From a virus: a stretch of DNA of 18,533 nt. Each line of letters begins with the position of its first letter. The first letter of the stretch is position 1. The notes below the pieces were generated by a model. That model had not been told where the DNA came from. It did not search any database and was given only the letters and a program-made list of their open reading frames with translations. Below, piece by piece: positions 2,027 to 9,885 of this stretch. Where the stretch lies: the UHGV virus genome UHGV-2195102; one strand, given 5' to 3'. Position numbers and translations under genes: made by a program.

Positions 2027-3621
2027 CAGAATCCCTCCAGCATACGGGCCGCCTGACGACGACGGCGTGAGCTTGCCTTCACCGACCCTTTGTTAATTTC
2101 ACGGCTGGCGAAATACGCCAGCGCCAGTGCGATGGCTGAATCCCCGTGGCGTTTACCACCGTCAGCCTTTGCTTTTGAGCGTTGCTCCGGTACGCGGGGG
2201 ACACCGTTCACCACCTGAACGGCCCGCAGGTCATCCAGTGTGTCTTCATCCTTTGGTAAGTCCACCAGGTTACCGTCTTCCAGTGCAGCTTTGACCGGAG
2301 GCATATGCTCCCGGTACCAGCCTTCGGTTGGCATCACCTGCTGAACCCGGCTGGAGCCGTAGCGCTGCATGGCGTATTCAGCCAGATAGGCACCATTACC
2401 ACGGGCATCAAACGCTGCACCCAGCAGACCGGGCAGGCCATCCATCAGATACCAGGTGATTTGCTCCTGCTGTCTGAACGGCACGTTACGCAGCTCCAGT
2501 ACGAATGGCACGCGTCGTACCAGGTTCTTCTCCTGCAGCAGGGGATAGTCCACCGACAAATCACCGCTACGGCCAAAGTCGCGCCCCAGGAAAGAGCGGG
2601 CATCAGTGGGGAGTGCCTCCAGCAAGGGTTTCAGATACTCATCAAGCCAGTCCTGCGTCTCGCGGAAGCGAACCTCATCAGACAGCAGTTCATAACCTTC
2701 CTTGCAGGTCAGACGCAATACCGGCGTATCAGCGGACATGCGGGACTCTATCAGGGCACGGGACAGCCAGGCACCGCCACCGTTGGCCGGAATACAGTCA
2801 AGCTCTTCGGATACGCCGGCACCGTAGAATTTGTACACCGATGCCATCCAGGCCTGCTCGGATGCCTCCGACCATTCCTTCCCGGTGCGCAGACAGACGC
2901 GCCGGAACAGCCCCTCAGATACGGCTTCCCGGAAAGTGATGCGATGTATGCTGCCTCCCTGACGTCCGGCACGGATATCCCCGATAAGCGTATTGAACGG
3001 ATTGTCGTCACCGTCATGGGTGGAGATAACGCGTACCTTTCCCCCCCAGATAAGCATCGCCAGCGCCGCTTTCAGCAGTTCGTCCAGTTGCTCATGGAAC
3101 GCCGCTTCGTCGATAACAATAATACCCTGACGGCCACGCAGGTTAGACGGGCGGCTGGAGAGCGCAACAATACGAAAGCCGGAGTCAGGAAATTTGATGG
3201 TGTAAGTCTTGATGTGTTTGTCGTCGTCGTCCTCTTCCCAGAATCCTTCTTCAATTTCACTGGCCGCATAGTTGAATGCCCGTGCCCACATCGCACACGC
3301 CTGAATGTATTCGACGGTCATGTCCTGGTTATAAGCGATGTAATACACATTCATCCCGCCTGCTGGCGCAGAAGAGGCGGCGGTCAGTACGTTATCGGAT
3401 GCCTCAGCCCATGTAATACCGGTACGACGGCTCTTTTCTATCACCTTAAGCGGAGAGGTGTCTGCCACCCAGCGCTGCTGGTAAGGCAACAGAACGGGAG
3501 GGGCATCCAGCGCCGAGGTATCAGGCAAAACGGGAGCAAGGTTATTCCTCCCGTCCATGGGACTCATCCCTTCGGGGCCGCCGCCAGCGGCGTTTAAAAT
3601 CACTCCGGATGATTTTGTCAT
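2026..3621 (-). CDS. terminase large subunit (Mu gp28-like)
   Basis: 531-aa ORF between the gp27-like gene and the portal; ATGA overlap with upstream gene at 3618-3621; acidic patches (FWEEDDDDKH) and size typical of Mu-type TerL. Confidence 0.8.
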   Translation of the reverse strand: MTKSSGVILNAAGGGPEGMSPMDGRNNLAPVLPDTSALDAPPVLLPYQQRWVADTSPLKVIEKSRRTGITWAEASDNVLTAASSAPAGGMNVYYIAYNQDMTVEYIQACAMWARAFNYAASEIEEGFWEEDDDDKHIKTYTIKFPDSGFRIVALSSRPSNLRGRQGIIVIDEAAFHEQLDELLKAALAMLIWGGKVRVISTHDGDDNPFNTLIGDIRAGRQGGSIHRITFREAVSEGLFRRVCLRTGKEWSEASEQAWMASVYKFYGAGVSEELDCIPANGGGAWLSRALIESRMSADTPVLRLTCKEGYELLSDEVRFRETQDWLDEYLKPLLEALPTDARSFLGRDFGRSGDLSVDYPLLQEKNLVRRVPFVLELRNVPFRQQEQITWYLMDGLPGLLGAAFDARGNGAYLAEYAMQRYGSSRVQQVMPTEGWYREHMPPVKAALEDGNLVDLPKDEDTLDDLRAVQVVNGVPRVPEQRSKAKADGGKRHGDSAIALALAYFASREINKGSVKASSRRRRQAARMLEGF

Positions 3622-4163
3622 GTGGCAATCCCCAGAATCTCGCGACGAAGCGCCTGTACTGCGTCGCTTGACAGTCCCCCCTTACGGGCAATTTTCTCGG
3701 CGTTGCTGGCTGCCTGCTGCGCTCTGGCCCGTACTTCAGACTGGAACTTTTTGAGGTTGACGGACGCGCGGGACAGCGTAGCCACATTCTTCGCCACCTT
3801 CGACAGCAGGGCCACGCGTTCTTTAGGATCGACTTCGCCTTCTTCCGCCTCCTGCAACTGGACAATACTCTCGAACAGCTCGGTCTGAATAAGGGCTATC
3901 ACAGCCTCCGAACGCGCATCCTGATCGTCTGCTGCGCCTTCGGTCAGCATGCGGGCCGCTTCTGTTGCCGCACGGATAGCACCATAGCGGCGCTCAATCT
4001 TCTGTCCATAGCGATGGATAGCGGATTTGCTGATGACGTACCCCCGCTCACGCAGCAGGGACTCCAGCTCGTTATACCCGCTGAAGCCGGATTCAGTCAG
4101 CGCCCGTTCAAGCCAGCGGCGCACGTCTTCCGGCAGCTTTTCTATTGTGCTGCGTCTGGCCAT
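3618..4163 (-). CDS. Mu gp27-like protein (DUF3486-type, putative small terminase/DNA-binding subunit)
   Basis: 181-aa ORF beginning MARRSTIEKLPEDVRRWLERALTESGFSGYNELESLL..., directly upstream of TerL and translationally coupled to it, as for Mu gp27. Confidence 0.65.
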   Translation of the reverse strand: MARRSTIEKLPEDVRRWLERALTESGFSGYNELESLLRERGYVISKSAIHRYGQKIERRYGAIRAATEAARMLTEGAADDQDARSEAVIALIQTELFESIVQLQEAEEGEVDPKERVALLSKVAKNVATLSRASVNLKKFQSEVRARAQQAASNAEKIARKGGLSSDAVQALRREILGIAT

Positions 4164-5447: not shown

Positions 5448-6171
5448 AACTGCTGCCTCCCCATGTGAGATATCGCGGTGCCAGTTCGCGCAGGATGCGC
5501 TGCGGATAATGGCGGTTCTCCCGCCAGCTGGCCGCATTGCGTCCGGCATTCACCGTGGCGACATGTCCGAACCAGCGGGTGCTGTCCAGACCTTTCTGTG
5601 ATGCAAGCCGCCTGTCCCGTTGTACCCAGCCCAGACCACCGTTATAGCCCGACAGTGTCATGGCCATACGCTCGCAGTCACTGGCGGCGCTGACACGCTG
5701 CCACAGCCAGCGGTCATAGCTGACCAGCGCCCGGATAGCCCATGCCGGATTAAACGGCTCACGACTGCTCAGCATCGGTATCAACTGGCTTATCCAGTCG
5801 GCAGTGGCAGGCATGAACTGCGCCAGTCCCTGAGCGCCAGCCGGCGAGATCGCATCAGGTCGCCAGCCGCTTTCCTGATGCAGTTGCGCGGCGAAATCGG
5901 CCACCGGCGCAGACAGTCCCCATTCAAGCCGGGCATTACGGATCACATCATCGCGATACTGCAGCGCAGCCTGCGGAGGTTGTGCTGCGCATGCCTGGCT
6001 GAAAAAGCCGCCACACCAGAGCAACATTGCGACAAAGAATACCCATGCCATATGAACCAGAAAGGTCCCGGCGCGGACTGACAGGCGTTCGGTTCTGATG
6101 AAGACCCGAAAGGCTTCGAAAGCCAGTTTCAGGGACATGCATACAATCCAGGTGATCTGCGGCCAGTTCAT
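5431..6171 (-). CDS. endolysin, lytic transglycosylase (SLT domain) with N-terminal membrane anchor (SAR-like)
   Basis: 246-aa ORF containing the SLT catalytic motif LHQESGWRPDAISPAGAQGLAQFMPATA. Hydrophobic N-terminus (MAWVFFVAMLLWCGGFFSQACAAQ). Start is uncertain between ATG 6171 and ATG 6051. Confidence 0.8.
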   Translation of the reverse strand: MNWPQITWIVCMSLKLAFEAFRVFIRTERLSVRAGTFLVHMAWVFFVAMLLWCGGFFSQACAAQPPQAALQYRDDVIRNARLEWGLSAPVADFAAQLHQESGWRPDAISPAGAQGLAQFMPATADWISQLIPMLSSREPFNPAWAIRALVSYDRWLWQRVSAASDCERMAMTLSGYNGGLGWVQRDRRLASQKGLDSTRWFGHVATVNAGRNAASWRENRHYPQRILRELAPRYLTWGGSSCVASD

Positions 6172-6173
6172 GA

Positions 6174-6524
6174 TTAAAGCCCCATCGCAACAGCCAGGCA
6201 GACCGCTGCAACAATCAGTACACGGCGGATTAACGCAGCAGAAAACACCAGGTGAAGGCCGGTCTGTACCGGGAAACGCCCTTCAGCCATCAGCCTGTCG
6301 TCATGTTTCAGGTACTGACCGGGACGGGCTTTGGGGAAGAGCGAACGGTCAAGCCAGTAACCCAGCACTGCTGCCAGCGTGATGAGTGCCAGCTTGTAGA
6401 TCACAACAGGCAGCTGCTGTGGTGAGACCAGAGCGATGGTGCCCAGCAACAGCACTGAGGTCAGCAGCCAGCCGCTGAGGCGAGGTTTTTTAACAGGGGG
6501 AATGAATTTTTTCAGGTTTTTCAT
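6174..6524 (-). CDS. putative holin-like membrane protein (about 3 TM segments), first gene of late operon
   Basis: ATG at 6524..6522 with GAGGA about 8 nt upstream; the ORF track start at 6572 is probably too long. Protein MKNLKKFIPPVKKPRLSGWLLTSVLLLGTIALV... has three hydrophobic helices; sits immediately upstream of the endolysin. Confidence 0.5.
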   Translation of the reverse strand: MKNLKKFIPPVKKPRLSGWLLTSVLLLGTIALVSPQQLPVVIYKLALITLAAVLGYWLDRSLFPKARPGQYLKHDDRLMAEGRFPVQTGLHLVFSAALIRRVLIVAAVCLAVAMGL

Positions 6525-6654
6525 GTGTGTATCCTCGTTTGGTGGAGACAGCATCACAAATACAGGGCGCAAAGGATTTTAAAGCGCGTTAAGAGAGCCG
6601 GGGATACGGGATGTGCAGGATAAACGATGAATTATTCACAGAGGAGAATACGAT

Positions 6655-7131
6655 ATGACGCACACACTGAATCCGGTCATCACTGTCACTGTGTCCGGTC
6701 CTGTGGGCAGCGGTAAAAGTTACGTACTGGCGCGGATAGAAGAGATGGTGAAACAGGAACTCGGAAACAGCGTCATTGTCGATGCTGCTGACGTGGAGAA
6801 TGAGCGCCGTATGAATGGCGAAGATCTGACGACCTGGCAGAAGCCACGGGGTGGCACAGTGATCAGGCTAGAGGAATACACGGGACAGGGCCTGTTGTCA
6901 TACGGCGAGGAGCGTATCTGTCGGACGAATGAGCTGCTGGATGTTATATGCCCCACGGGCCGGCAACCCTGGATACTGCCCGATGCACTGCATGCCACCA
7001 TTGCGGCACTGATGACAGTTTACGATCAGGAGCTGCTCATGAAGGAGTTACGTAAACTCACCGGTCAGCCAACAGAATGTTGTTCGTCTCCGAAGTACGG
7101 CAAACAGGAAAACGCCCCGGATAATCCTTAA
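6655..7131 (+). CDS. small P-loop NTPase-like protein (158 aa), accessory gene of unknown function
   Basis: Strong RBS GAGGAG 6640-6645 before ATG 6655. Walker A motif VSGPVGSGKSY near the N-terminus, followed by hydrophobic-Asp stretch VIVDAADVE. Opposite strand to the late operon. Confidence 0.6.
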   Translation: MTHTLNPVITVTVSGPVGSGKSYVLARIEEMVKQELGNSVIVDAADVENERRMNGEDLTTWQKPRGGTVIRLEEYTGQGLLSYGEERICRTNELLDVICPTGRQPWILPDALHATIAALMTVYDQELLMKELRKLTGQPTECCSSPKYGKQENAPDNP

Positions 7132-7150
7132 GATACCTCCTGAACAGAAA

Positions 7151-7166
7151 CAGCCCTGAAGGGCTG
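7151..7166 (-). terminator. GC-rich hairpin CAGCCC-TGAA-GGGCTG between convergent genes; likely intrinsic terminator for the minus-strand cassette
   Basis: Perfect 6-bp stem with 4-nt loop at 7151-7166, 3 nt past the TAG stop (7169-7171) of the 196-aa ORF. On the minus strand it is followed by TTTCTGTT; on the plus strand it is followed by an A-run, so termination for the P-loop gene is less clear. Confidence 0.45.
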
Positions 7167-7168
7167 CA

Positions 7169-7756
7169 CTAAAAAAAGAAGTGTATTATTGCCCAAACAG
7201 CTATAACGATGATTCCCAGCCCAAGAGCCGATTCTAACTTATCTTTGGCAGTCATTTTTACTGTTGTAGCGGGCGCAGGTAAGTCTTGCTGCTGTGGATT
7301 TTCTGTTAGTTGTTTACGAGAAGAAACATCGCCCCTATTAGTTTGCTTCATGTTGATTACAGATGCGTTATGGGCATTATCAGCAGCAATTGACTGAAGT
7401 TTTACAAAAGTTTTTGAATCTGTTTTAGCCAGAAGTAACCTATTTCCCGTAAACATTGCCTTAAAAGTGATAGTTTTTTTCGTCTTGTCCGCCGCACCAA
7501 GCAAACCTCCAATGACCAACCCTGCACCACCAAAGATTAATCCACCAAGCAAACCTGCGCCTGCCGCCTTACCTATACGACTTTCCTCTTCACTATCCGC
7601 AAGTTCAATCGATAAAAGCTCTTCTTTCAGATTTAATACAATATTTTCAGGAAAGCCTTGTTTTGGTTTTTTGGCAAACACGATGGTACCGAACCCCATG
7701 CTTGCCCACCCTTTAGGAAAACTTCCTGCGATAACCTGAATCCCTGCCATGTTCAT
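7169..7756 (-). CDS. glycine-zipper membrane protein (about 195 aa), unknown function
   Basis: Start region reads GTG-ATG-AAC-ATG; AGGTGA lies upstream of the ATGs at 7756 and 7750. Central GxxxG-rich segment GAGLLGGLIFGGAGLVIGGLLGA and C-terminal hydrophobic tail LGLGIIVIAVWAIIHFFF. Noticeably AT-rich compared with flanking phage genes. Confidence 0.6.
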   Translation of the reverse strand: MNMAGIQVIAGSFPKGWASMGFGTIVFAKKPKQGFPENIVLNLKEELLSIELADSEEESRIGKAAGAGLLGGLIFGGAGLVIGGLLGAADKTKKTITFKAMFTGNRLLLAKTDSKTFVKLQSIAADNAHNASVINMKQTNRGDVSSRKQLTENPQQQDLPAPATTVKMTAKDKLESALGLGIIVIAVWAIIHFFF

Positions 7757-7840
7757 CACCTTTTACATTAAAATTTCAGAACGCAGCATGATGCCGCCTT
7801 TGTCTTTTTTCTGATCCCATGGTAATTCAGCTGTTATTTT

Positions 7841-8827
7841 CTATTTAAGAATAAAACGGTATTTACTGTCAGGAGTGCTTTGCTGATCAAGTAGCAGTGA
7901 ACGACATGGAGCAGTCAAAACCCGAGCATAACTACCATCAGGGCTTATGTTAATGTAACAAACCTTGCCCTTAACACTATAATTTTCGGGGACGGATGCC
8001 TTTGCTGATACAGTAAATTTAAGGGTATGCCAGCCCGTTTTTTGCTTGTAGCTTGAAACCGAATGGAAATCATCTGAGTACTTATTTAACCCTGGAAACA
8101 TGCTGCGCAGTGCGGGGATGGAATCTTCTATTATTTTATCGTTGGTTTTAATGTTAAAAACGCTGGTTTCAGTAGAAGCTACTGCTTTGGCATTTCCCCA
8201 TTTACCAGCGAACACAATCATTCCCACGAAAAATATTGCTACAAGAACTAACACTCCCCCCAACACTACTACATGAGGCTTCCGGCTTCTGGTTGGTACA
8301 GTTGCGACTGATTTTGCACCGCTTTCCGATGGAGGTGATAGAGTTTTACTCTCATCACGAATATTCAGCAGATCATCAAAATAACCAAACACAGCCTGCA
8401 ACTGCTCTTTGTCTAGGCCTTTAAGATGGGTTGTACCGAAATGCTTCAGACAGTATCTGTCACGGTCAAGACGATACCCAGGGTCAGTAAGCGCCATTAT
8501 TTTGCTGACCAGAAGATTACAGTCCTTCATATTCTGGATCTGTTGTGCATATCTCTGAAGGATCTCAACCGCACCATGATAATCAGCCGCAGTCATTTCA
8601 TTAACTGTTTTGGTATTAAGTTTCGTGTGGATCGTCATCCATAGCTCGCGCTTACTTTCCCCCAGATCAACCAATTCATCCATCAATCTGTGTAAATCGC
8701 GTTTTTGCAGCAACGAAATTGGTTGCTGGGCCGAAGGAAGTATGTCAGCAGAATAGTTATGAATGGTAACATCACCGCTGACAACGTTACCCACATCCCC
8801 GTTAACTGTTTGCTTCTCTTTACTCAT
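7841..8827 (-). CDS. single-pass membrane protein (328 aa), unknown function; translationally coupled to the repressor gene
   Basis: ATGA overlap with the repressor stop at 8824-8827 confirmed in sequence. Soluble N-terminal ~185 aa, TM segment HVVVLGGVLVLVAIFFVGMIVFAG, C-terminal ~120 aa domain. AT-rich. No family recognised. Confidence 0.6.
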   Translation of the reverse strand: MSKEKQTVNGDVGNVVSGDVTIHNYSADILPSAQQPISLLQKRDLHRLMDELVDLGESKRELWMTIHTKLNTKTVNEMTAADYHGAVEILQRYAQQIQNMKDCNLLVSKIMALTDPGYRLDRDRYCLKHFGTTHLKGLDKEQLQAVFGYFDDLLNIRDESKTLSPPSESGAKSVATVPTRSRKPHVVVLGGVLVLVAIFFVGMIVFAGKWGNAKAVASTETSVFNIKTNDKIIEDSIPALRSMFPGLNKYSDDFHSVSSYKQKTGWHTLKFTVSAKASVPENYSVKGKVCYINISPDGSYARVLTAPCRSLLLDQQSTPDSKYRFILK

Positions 8828-9249
8828 CTTCTCTTGGTATTTTTGTTCATTATTCCACCTGTTCCTATGGTTACGTTACCTTTGATAACATTCCCCAGAA
8901 CATCTCCATGAATAACCTGTTCCGCCCGTTCTCTGGAGGAGCCAGTAGTCAAGGCCGACAAAACTGAACCTTTGACCTGTAATGGTGCCTGCCGGTAGTG
9001 CTGCAGTAACTCCATTTCATCACGTGATAAAGTTATACCTGATGACTCCCCGGTAAGAATGAACTGTACATTGGCCCCAATTCTTGCAAAGGCTGCAAGT
9101 AACTCACCTCCGGGAACAGCAACCCCTCGTTCATATTTCCCCCACATTTCTCTTGAAACGCCACAAAGGGCTGCTACTTCAGCCTGCTTGAGTGATAACC
9201 GCGAACGCTCAGCTTTGAACCGCGACGCGCAAAGAGAATCAAAATTCAC
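8824..9249 (-). CDS. XRE-family HTH transcriptional repressor (prophage c-type repressor)
   Basis: HTH segment LSLKQAEVAALCGVSREMWGKYERG. Preferred start GTG 9249..9247 with GAGG 5 nt upstream; the ORF track start ATG 9285 would place the plus-strand promoter and palindrome inside the coding region. Divergent from the early operon. Confidence 0.7.
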   Translation of the reverse strand: MNFDSLCASRFKAERSRLSLKQAEVAALCGVSREMWGKYERGVAVPGGELLAAFARIGANVQFILTGESSGITLSRDEMELLQHYRQAPLQVKGSVLSALTTGSSRERAEQVIHGDVLGNVIKGNVTIGTGGIMNKNTKRR

Positions 9250-9259
9250 ATAAACCTCA

Positions 9260-9288
9260 TTGACAATGAGAACAATAGTTCTCATAAT
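9260..9288 (+). promoter_or_regulatory. putative early promoter: -35 TTGACA (9260-9265), 17-nt spacer, -10 CATAAT (9283-9288), with operator palindrome GAGAAC-N4-GTTCTC (9268-9283) in the spacer
   Basis: Read directly from sequence: consensus -35, 17-bp spacing, near-consensus -10, about 45 nt upstream of the ner-like start; the perfect 6-bp inverted repeat overlaps the spacer and -10. Confidence 0.5.
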
Positions 9289-9335
9289 CTATCACATATA
9301 AAACAAACATCATTGCATCAACAAAGGAGACAACA

Positions 9336-9524
9336 ATGACTTCCGAACAAGTTAAAAATCTCTTCCGTCAGCGTGGTATCACGTTTACCCGCTGGGCCGA
9401 AGAACACGGCTACAGCCGCAATGAGGTCTATCGTGTTCTCAATGGACAGACCAAAGCTCGTTACGGCAAAGCCCATGAAATTGCCGTAAAACTGGGATTA
9501 AAACCCACGTCAAATGCGGCATAA
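9336..9524 (+). CDS. small HTH DNA-binding protein in the Ner/Cro position (62 aa)
   Basis: AGGAG 9325-9329 before ATG 9336. First gene of the rightward early operon, divergent from the repressor. Sequence MTSEQVKNLFRQRGITFTRWAEEHGYSRNEVYRVLNGQTKARYGKAHEIAVKLGL is consistent with a small HTH regulator. Confidence 0.6.
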   Translation: MTSEQVKNLFRQRGITFTRWAEEHGYSRNEVYRVLNGQTKARYGKAHEIAVKLGLKPTSNAA

Positions 9525-9576
9525 ATTTTCCACATATGCAACAGGTTATCACATATTGCAAAAATGGAAATGTGAC

Positions 9577-9885
9577 ATGAGTAAAGTAAATATTTCCAGT
9601 TCTGGGACCCGCATCCTACGTGTACTCAAAGCTCTACGCGGTCATGCTCTGAACGGTGTTTCTAACGGTGAACTGGCATCAGCCCTGGGGGAGTCCCCGG
9701 CGAATATCAATCGAGCACTTAATACCCTTATTGAAGAGGGACTGGCCATGAAATTAGAGAACGGACGTTTCGCACCGGGAATCCAGTTACTACAGATCGC
9801 CATGGCTCACAGTCACGAGATGGCGCGTGCACAGGATCGTATTAACGAAATCAACCAACGAGTTATTTCAGGTAGTCGTTTGTAA
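9577..9885 (+). CDS. winged-helix DNA-binding protein (IclR-like N-terminal HTH pattern), about 102 aa
   Basis: Preferred start ATG 9577 (the ORF track start 9514 overlaps the ner-like gene). Sequence TRILRVLKALRGHALNGVSNGELASALGESPANINRALNTLIEEGLAMKLENGRF resembles a winged-helix HTH. Confidence 0.5.
   Translation: MSKVNISSSGTRILRVLKALRGHALNGVSNGELASALGESPANINRALNTLIEEGLAMKLENGRFAPGIQLLQIAMAHSHEMARAQDRINEINQRVISGSRL

Follow-up and report, generated by a model that had tools for sequence, protein, structure and literature searches.

The window analysed here, a stretch of 18,533 nucleotides (nts), is a BcepMu-like (Bcepmuvirus-type) transposable prophage of Escherichia coli, and the gene under study lies on its plus strand between the holin gene and a two-gene cassette adjoined by the repressor gene (Table 1). 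Inspection of the locus confirmed what the original prediction had reported, namely an open reading frame of 158 aa, the Walker A motif GPVGSGKS and a strong ribosome-binding site 8 nts upstream of the ATG, as well as the orientation against the surroundings, the holin gene and both cassette genes being located on the minus strand.

The 598 nts comprising the gene and its flanks (6573-7170) are 100% identical in E. coli CE10 and IAI39, and the gene order around the P-loop gene in CE10 matches that of the window. Escherichia phage PhiKM is 98% identical to the window over 5500-7119, its homologue (XRL29432.1) occupies the equivalent position adjoining the holin, and it is the only one among 50,697 phage records with a close homologue. 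The CE10 prophage (L002), otherwise identical to the window, carries a stop codon inside the DUF3486 (Mu gp27-like small terminase) gene at 9046-9591 and an IS3 insertion in the early region at 21904-23081, and on account of these two lesions the CE10 copy is probably defective; the gp27-like gene of the window (3618-4163) is intact.

Table 1. Features at and around the P-loop gene (window positions unless residues or codons are stated)
Feature	Position	Strand	Remarks
Holin, 116 aa	6174-6524	-	true ATG at 6524
Divergent holin/P-loop intergenic region, 130 nt	6525-6654	.
Conserved block GGAGACAGCATCACAAAT	6544-6561		in the holin/P-loop intergenic region
Conserved block TTTTAAAGCGCGTTAA	6577-6592		in the holin/P-loop intergenic region
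TAAAAT, candidate -10 of the late/lysis operon	6581-6576	-	within TTTTAAAGCGCGTTAA; without -35 partner
Ribosome-binding site GAGGAG	6641-6646	+	8 nt before ATG
P-loop gene CDS	6655-7131	+	ATG to TAA, 158 aa; PHROG 3787 member
Module A (mini P-loop head)	6655-6882, codons 1-76	+	from homologue alignment and model
Walker A GPVGSGKS	6697-6720, residues 15-22	+	after hydrophobic strand VITVTVS, before helix
Module A elements (predicted)	residues 8-76		strand 8-15, helix 21-39, ER loop (E50), W61, strand 69-76 ending at E74
Module E	6907-7062, codons 85-136	+	three predicted helices
22-aa tail TGQPTECCSSPKYGKQENAPDNP	7063-7128	+	low model confidence, predicted disordered
GC-rich hairpin	7150-7167	-	18 nt after the P-loop gene stop
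Variable low-GC cargo and immunity segment	7169-9285	-
196-aa two-TM protein	7169-7759	-	Gly-rich TM segment and C-terminal TM segment; PHROG 12025
328-aa Flk-N-like single-TM protein with C-terminal domain	7841-8827	-	PHROG 10002
HTH repressor	8824-9285	-

The two conserved blocks of the divergent intergenic region are kept in the E. coli alleles and in Klebsiella phage KP12, recur with a few changes in C. braakii, and are present even in phages without the P-loop gene. The block containing the TAAAAT element is probably an activator-dependent late (lysis) promoter together with its leader. At the other end of the gene, the original prediction had the gene converging on a hairpin, which holds as far as its position just past the stop codon is concerned, but the hairpin is likely to act mainly as the terminator of the repressor-cassette operon. 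This assignment is based on the T-rich run TTTCTGTTC that trails the minus-strand side, where the plus-strand side has an A-run, on the fold, which is significant for the minus-strand RNA (z = -3.1) versus z = -1.4 for the plus strand, and on the location of the hairpin in variable cassette DNA.

Distribution, selection and the variable interval

Of 5426 complete E. coli genomes, 571 have the stretch with the P-loop gene, in each case on the chromosome, and the gene is therefore not the orphan that it had been taken for. The adjacent holin/SLT lysis genes were found in 636 complete E. coli genomes, and comparison of the two counts indicates that about 90% of the E. coli prophages of this type carry the gene. 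The product matches PHROG 3787, a phage protein family without functional annotation (E 2.1e-107, residues 1-157 against profile positions 1-157 of 242); a literature search with WP_000149906 found no paper on the protein.

When dN/dS was determined by the Nei-Gojobori method over codons 1-135, using all allele pairs with more than a handful of substitutions, values of 0.16-0.36 were obtained for alleles of 73-97% identity, one near-identical pair with 4 differences being uninformative. The reading frame is kept in alleles down to 73% identity. From the dN/dS values it is clear that the P-loop gene is genuine and that its plus-strand frame is under purifying selection. An antisense open reading frame (6720-7001) was considered as a gene and rejected, because the substitution pattern fits the plus frame. 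The synonymous divergence within the gene is a mosaic: against the 141-aa alleles of L012 and L035, dS was 0.03-0.3 over codons 1-50 and 1.4, which is near saturation, over codons 51-100, indicating either intragenic recombination breakpoints or an extra DNA-level constraint on the 5′ end beside the late promoter.

The interval from the holin to the repressor is a cargo slot. In blastn comparison with seven relatives (PhiKM, KP12, L009, L012, L043, L042 and C. braakii), the left breakpoint of the variable interval was located at window position 7055, 7120 or 7131 and the right breakpoint at about 9283, and the interval thus includes the repressor gene. Its content varies by prophage and comprises membrane proteins, Dam methylase, a DUF2441 protein and different repressors. 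In KS10/BcepMu, the equivalent interval is bounded by the repressor (gp17) and the holin (gp21) (PMC2628397). The two cassette genes of the window are co-oriented with the repressor and lie directly downstream of it; 97 E. coli genomes have the whole cassette, and 30 others have only the 328-aa gene. The N-terminal domain of the 328-aa protein matches the NCBIfam Flk model with E 3e-12, which is below the cut-off, and the 196-aa/328-aa pair is a candidate for an exclusion or conversion unit expressed in the lysogen.

The GC content is 53-56% for the P-loop gene, 54-63% for the late operon and 39-45% for the cassette. Because of this backbone-like GC content and the carriage by about 90% of the E. 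coli prophages of this type, the P-loop gene is regarded as the conserved, backbone-like left border of the slot and not as imported cargo. Of the cargo locus proposed in the original prediction, the variability of the holin-to-repressor interval was thus borne out, but not the inclusion of the P-loop gene. The presence/absence comparison that had been suggested along with it did reveal variation among syntenic relatives, the gene being absent in KP12 and E. coli 503829, both of which keep the holin and the early genes. Such variation is one property of a moron; with regard to the other properties, no sigma-70 consensus promoter for the plus strand was found in 6525-6654, the hairpin has no U-tract on the plus strand, and the GC content does not deviate from the backbone.

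A P-loop head of about 75 residues

The conserved unit of the protein is its N-terminal part, module A. An exhaustive HMMER search of 1.8e9 representative proteins gave only 68 clusters at E <= 1e-3, so that the module is rare, and, beyond the closest E. coli relatives, nearly all of them align to profile positions 1-75 only. The pattern starts with a hydrophobic strand, GPxGxGK[ST], an amphipathic helix (xIExxLxxE[FY]G) and a short strand, and continues with a loop that has a near-invariant Glu (E50, usually ER) and Trp-x-x-Pro, and with a last strand ending in the near-invariant Glu74. In the module alignment, G15, G20, K21, E50 and E74 are invariant or nearly so, and 122 of the 127 distinct sequences of the module have a canonical Walker A motif. 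In three homologues of the Salmonella type the motif is degenerate and acidic, GA[ED]xxGKN (GAESSGKN, GAEDAGKN), and for this reason phosphate binding may not be universal across the homologues.

Module A is also short. In 44 of the 127 cases the whole protein is no longer than 95 aa, and several stand-alone members end no more than a few residues from Glu74. At least five strands make up the core of a canonical P-loop NTPase, and module A, with about three predicted strands, tentatively appears too short for such a core. AlphaFold2 gave a mean pLDDT of 47.8 with the close-family alignment and of 61.0 with a 67-sequence alignment containing distant stand-alone members, and the two weak models agree in strand 8-15, helix 21-39, strand 69-76, three helices and a disordered tail. 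Examined for a canonical fold, the prediction consists of two long strands and one bridge at pLDDT 48-61, with Walker A and Glu74 present. Since the models are weak, the three-strand topology is tentative.

Fold searches, which the original prediction had suggested for kinase, zeta-toxin-like or AAA-type folds, gave no significant match to any solved structure, and the best structural match was to a viral protein of 72 aa (E 1e-5, TM 0.65 on the target). When PDB sequences were searched with the profile, only generic strand-P-loop-helix matches were obtained, none with a whole-sequence E better than 8e-5 and none significant for an individual domain, and the designed minimal P-loop proteins 6C2U and 9JIX were among these matches (E ~5e-4).

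Comparison with family models led to the same region. For the 158-aa protein, the score was 13.6 bits for ABC_tran against a cut-off of 25, 14 bits for the GlnQ and PhnC equivalogs (cut-offs 266-379), 17.9 for AAA_30 (27), 16.6 for AAA_22 (27), 13.3 for AAA_16 (32.6), 14.6 for KAP_NTPase (20), 12.6 for Zeta_toxin (22.3) and about 13 bits for the NCBIfam kinase equivalogs (180-263). The sub-threshold AAA+ and KAP matches are all within residues 4-63; taken together, the Pfam, NCBIfam and PADLOC matches all fall in roughly the first 60 residues, and most of them span approximately 4-50. The PADLOC-DB defence models gave no significant match, the best having E 0.0014-0.007 with the listed stretches in the P-loop region only, and when Pfam, NCBIfam and PADLOC were searched with the window protein and 18 homologues, nothing except the P-loop element was above the cut-off. 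Membership in the AAA+, KAP or STAND NTPases and in the zeta toxins or small nucleotide kinases was rejected because the family HMM scores are below the cut-off. The ABC transporter ATPase, which is the RefSeq/PGAP name of WP_000149906.1, was rejected because the protein has no SGG-type signature, scores below the cut-off and is too short.

The proposal of a recognisable small kinase, zeta toxin or AAA-type NTPase was therefore not borne out, all the Pfam and NCBIfam matches being sub-cut-off and confined to the Walker A strand and helix. The more general statement that the protein is non-structural and bears a P-loop is supported, and the gene is not a core gene with a known morphogenetic role. 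Members of the family and fragments of them carry the names 'ABC transporter ATPase', 'KAP family NTPase', 'P-loop NTPase fold protein', 'uridine kinase' and 'Ni2+-binding GTPase', and these RefSeq names all derive from the Walker A element alone. Neither "ABC transporter ATPase" nor "KAP family NTPase" is a supported label, and both should be kept out of further annotations.

A remaining enzymatic interpretation is that the protein is an autonomous small enzyme, either an NTPase or a nucleotide or small-molecule kinase, which acts either in nucleotide metabolism or as a toxin of the zeta type. Consistent with such an enzyme, almost no variation is seen at the Lys and Ser/Thr of Walker A or at E74, an acidic residue at the end of a later strand, and the top matches, although weak, are to P-loop kinases and NTPases (adenylate and cytidylate kinases, UreG, PPK2 and PilT). 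We regard this interpretation as quite unlikely.

Module A alone occurs as 70-90-aa proteins in unrelated phages and prophages, and from the sequences collected the module appears to be restricted to phages. In a Yersinia mollaretii prophage, the last base of the lysis gene LysC is the first base of a 71-aa gene, with HNH and terminase genes downstream. An Acinetobacter pittii prophage and a related contig have the stand-alone gene between HNH and NinB/terminase, a marine prophage has it two genes away from the integrase, and in Thalassolituus it is located in an island of small genes without assigned function beside type I-F CRISPR-Cas and BrxR. In addition, a 159-aa protein (P0087; L045, 1919-2398) combines PG_binding_1 (E 4.7e-15) with module A. 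It is a singleton of the homologue search on one 2.9-kb metagenomic contig, may be a rare true fusion or an artefact of assembly or gene calling, and is given little weight here.

These contexts bear on another possibility, that the protein is a lysis or late-phase accessory factor, made with the lysis genes and modulating lysis or late transcription, for example via a phosphate-bearing envelope or regulatory ligand. Wherever its location was checked, in BcepMu-like prophages of E. coli and C. braakii and in the IMG/VR prophage L046, the P-loop gene was the immediate divergent neighbour of the holin, with a control region of 100-130 nts in common. The start of the Yersinia homologue within LysC suggests translational coupling, and P0087 joins a peptidoglycan-binding domain, PG_binding_1, to the head. 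However, the other stand-alone members are early, replication-proximal or beside the integrase, without lysis genes nearby, the PG_binding_1 fusion is a single sequence on one short contig, and in KP12 and E. coli 503829 the same lysis cassette is present although module A is absent. Furthermore, the slot after the lysis cassette is a common site for unrelated accessory genes, which weakens the argument from position. A lysis or late-phase role is therefore considered improbable, and the reading that we prefer is that of an accessory P-loop head to which different C-terminal modules are attached.

C-terminal modules and the end of the 158-aa allele

The allele of the window consists of head A, the helical module E and the 22-aa tail; the helices after the head are predicted at residues 83-98, 110-122 and 125-136 in the weak AlphaFold2 models. 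Module E is also the closing module of the Salmonella-type proteins P0034 and P0036 and of the module-D protein P0068. Among the E. coli alleles, the 141-aa form is A-E, the 158-aa form is A-E with the tail, and the 242/247-aa forms are A-E-F, in which module F, approximately 90 aa long, continues from the tail linker. The Salmonella and Citrobacter relatives (195-364 aa) have a head of about 50-58% identity, behind which recurring blocks are found in varying order.

When the architectures of E. coli, Citrobacter and Salmonella-type prophages were surveyed by blastp with eleven seed modules, at least 11 C-terminal modules and approximately 17 architectures built from modules A-K were obtained, some of the shortest of which may be truncated gene calls: A-E, A-E-F, A'-F, A-B-C-E, A-G, A-C-J, A-B-I, A-K-C-D, A-K-C-J, A-B-C-G, A-I-H, A-I, A-K-C-H, A-C, A-H, A-C-D and A-B-C-D. 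No Pfam or PADLOC match was found for any of the modules, and a few of them match other PHROGs, again without assigned function.

In a 182-aa E. coli allele (P0028/P0030), the linker and module F directly follow the first 51 residues of A. Residues 51-124 are deleted, including Glu74 and the last strand, and the first strand, Walker A, the helix and the second strand stay. If this allele is functional, it would argue that part of the activity resides in just the P-loop strand and helix.

The head can also be missing from the slot. In KP12 (L003) and E. coli 503829 (L042), where the lysis cassette is kept and module A is absent, homology ends at window position 6591, and the place of the P-loop gene is filled by an unannotated 107-aa plus-strand open reading frame (KP12 7145-7468, 503829 1657-1980). 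This frame is preceded by an equivalent ribosome-binding site and corresponds to module D, with the motif MTEPKQ.G.KKGFLFG...YTLS.DA...HFASGENNVM.IG.VAATS. Module D is the closing module of several Salmonella-type P-loop proteins, and P0068 has the architecture D-E. From the module-D frame in KP12 and 503829 and the architecture of P0068, it is concluded that the slot holds a modular gene whose head is itself replaceable. Part of the variation at the 3′ end could have arisen incidentally, as cassettes were exchanged at a recombination hot spot, and not through selection for diversity.

We examined where the 158-aa form ends relative to other alleles. The 158-aa and 247-aa forms share the linker TGQPTEC..PKYGKQE up to about codon 155 and diverge at 7119/7120, homology to the 141-aa allele ends at 7055, and homology to another 158-aa allele, P0008, which is 83% identical, ends exactly at the stop codon. 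P0008 has the same PDNP-stop, its DNA differs directly after the TAA, and the cassette behind it is another one, with a Dam methylase among its products. The idea that the stop was made by the particular cassette of the window was therefore rejected, as the diverged P0008 ends identically before another cassette. Judged from this identical ending, the 158-aa end is a stable allele boundary, and the 158-aa form is probably descended from an A-E-F ancestor that lost F. The exact arrangement of the 158-aa gene with the window cassette is at least 99% conserved in 97 genomes.

That the 158-aa frame is a decaying or functionless remnant, namely the 5′ stump of the 247-aa gene cut by insertion of the low-GC cassette, is in line with the linker that the 158-aa and 242/247-aa alleles have in common before they differ and with the predicted disorder of the tail, but it is highly improbable in view of the completeness of modules A and E, as in the naturally short 141-aa allele, P0034 and P0036, the dN/dS of 0.2-0.3, the PDNP-stop that P0008 has before its own cassette, and the conservation of the arrangement in the 97 genomes.

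Proposed role and comparison with known systems

We interpret the gene as an accessory gene under purifying selection that encodes a P-loop head with exchangeable C-terminal modules, and give this descriptive part a probability of roughly 0.85. The mechanistic part, according to which the head would be oligomeric and bind phosphate or nucleotide, the modules would bind partners and the protein would act in conflict, is tentative and is given somewhat less than even odds. As a hypothetical prophage gene the gene is ordinary; the truncated P-loop and the modular architecture are unusual.

According to this mechanism, the head would bind a phosphate-bearing ligand, most likely Mg-NTP, via Lys21 and Ser22 of Walker A and the Walker-B-like Glu74, as suggested by the near-invariance of the Walker A Lys, the Ser/Thr and Glu74. 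As strands are missing, the head would probably be a dimer or oligomer that completes the sheet. It could then serve as a common scaffold or switch for the exchangeable helical modules, each of which would engage a different host or rival-phage partner, the tails giving the target specificity. The protein would thus be a conflict factor, for counter-defence or exclusion, and not a metabolic kinase or a transporter ATPase. The combinatorial tails and the hypervariable slot beside the immunity region point in this direction, and we consider a role in phage-host conflict more likely than one in metabolism. A more specific form of the proposal is that module A, at about 75 aa, would be a minimal P-loop protein of natural origin, which depends on oligomer formation both to fold and to bind nucleotide or phosphate ligands and is thus the natural equivalent of the engineered P-loop prototypes, and that it heads a set of small shuffled counter-defence or exclusion effectors of enterobacterial transposable prophages at the holin slot; this form is unlikely at present.

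If a head of about 75 residues does bind a ligand, it would be a rare natural P-loop protein of sub-domain size, and such a ligand-binding mini head would bear on the origin of the most common enzyme fold. The exchange of about eleven modules behind a constant head, at one locus and in about one tenth of the E. coli genomes, is a pattern to be expected in an arms race. The modules may therefore be regarded as a compact set of candidate counter-defence or exclusion modules.

Compared with ABC ATP-binding proteins, the common feature is Walker A only. ABC proteins have LSGGQ, a Q-loop and an H-loop, which the window protein does not have, and an ABC nucleotide-binding domain exceeds 200 aa, whereas the window protein has 158 aa and no transporter partner nearby. 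The agreement with PHROG 3787 is much closer, as residues 1-157 match and the position beside the holin is the same in PhiKM; the profile represents the 242-aa form with the extra C-terminal module F, whereas the window allele is without F.

Polyvalent proteins are likewise encoded by phages and shuffled combinatorially in their domains, and those of phages and conjugative elements have been read as conflict weaponry (Iyer et al. 2017, PMC5512222). However, polyvalent proteins are large, with 2-15 recognisable and often enzymatic domains, and are usually found in virion or transfer contexts, whereas the present family is 140-360 aa long, its modules have no known domain, and the gene lies beside the lysis/immunity boundary. 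Membership among the polyvalent proteins was rejected, because no module has a Pfam or PADLOC match and the gene is outside the virion module.

Among the systems compared, the protein would work most like a P-loop phosphate binder. With P-loop NTPases in general, module A has in common the hydrophobic strand, GxxxxGK[ST], the helix and an acidic residue that ends a later strand. It differs in having three predicted strands in about 75 aa and no family-level match, and the stand-alone proteins end where a canonical P-loop domain needs two or more further strands. Two reports on designed phosphate-loop proteins describe them as binding or acting on phosphate ligands without a full NTPase domain (bioRxiv 10.1101/2020.07.30.228619, PMC10119929). 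Similar to module A, 6C2U ('phosphate-loop protein') and 9JIX ('PL2x4_2') are short beta-alpha polypeptides with a Walker A loop. These two are engineered whereas module A is natural, and the likeness, which is confined to the P-loop element, lies in size and motif only.
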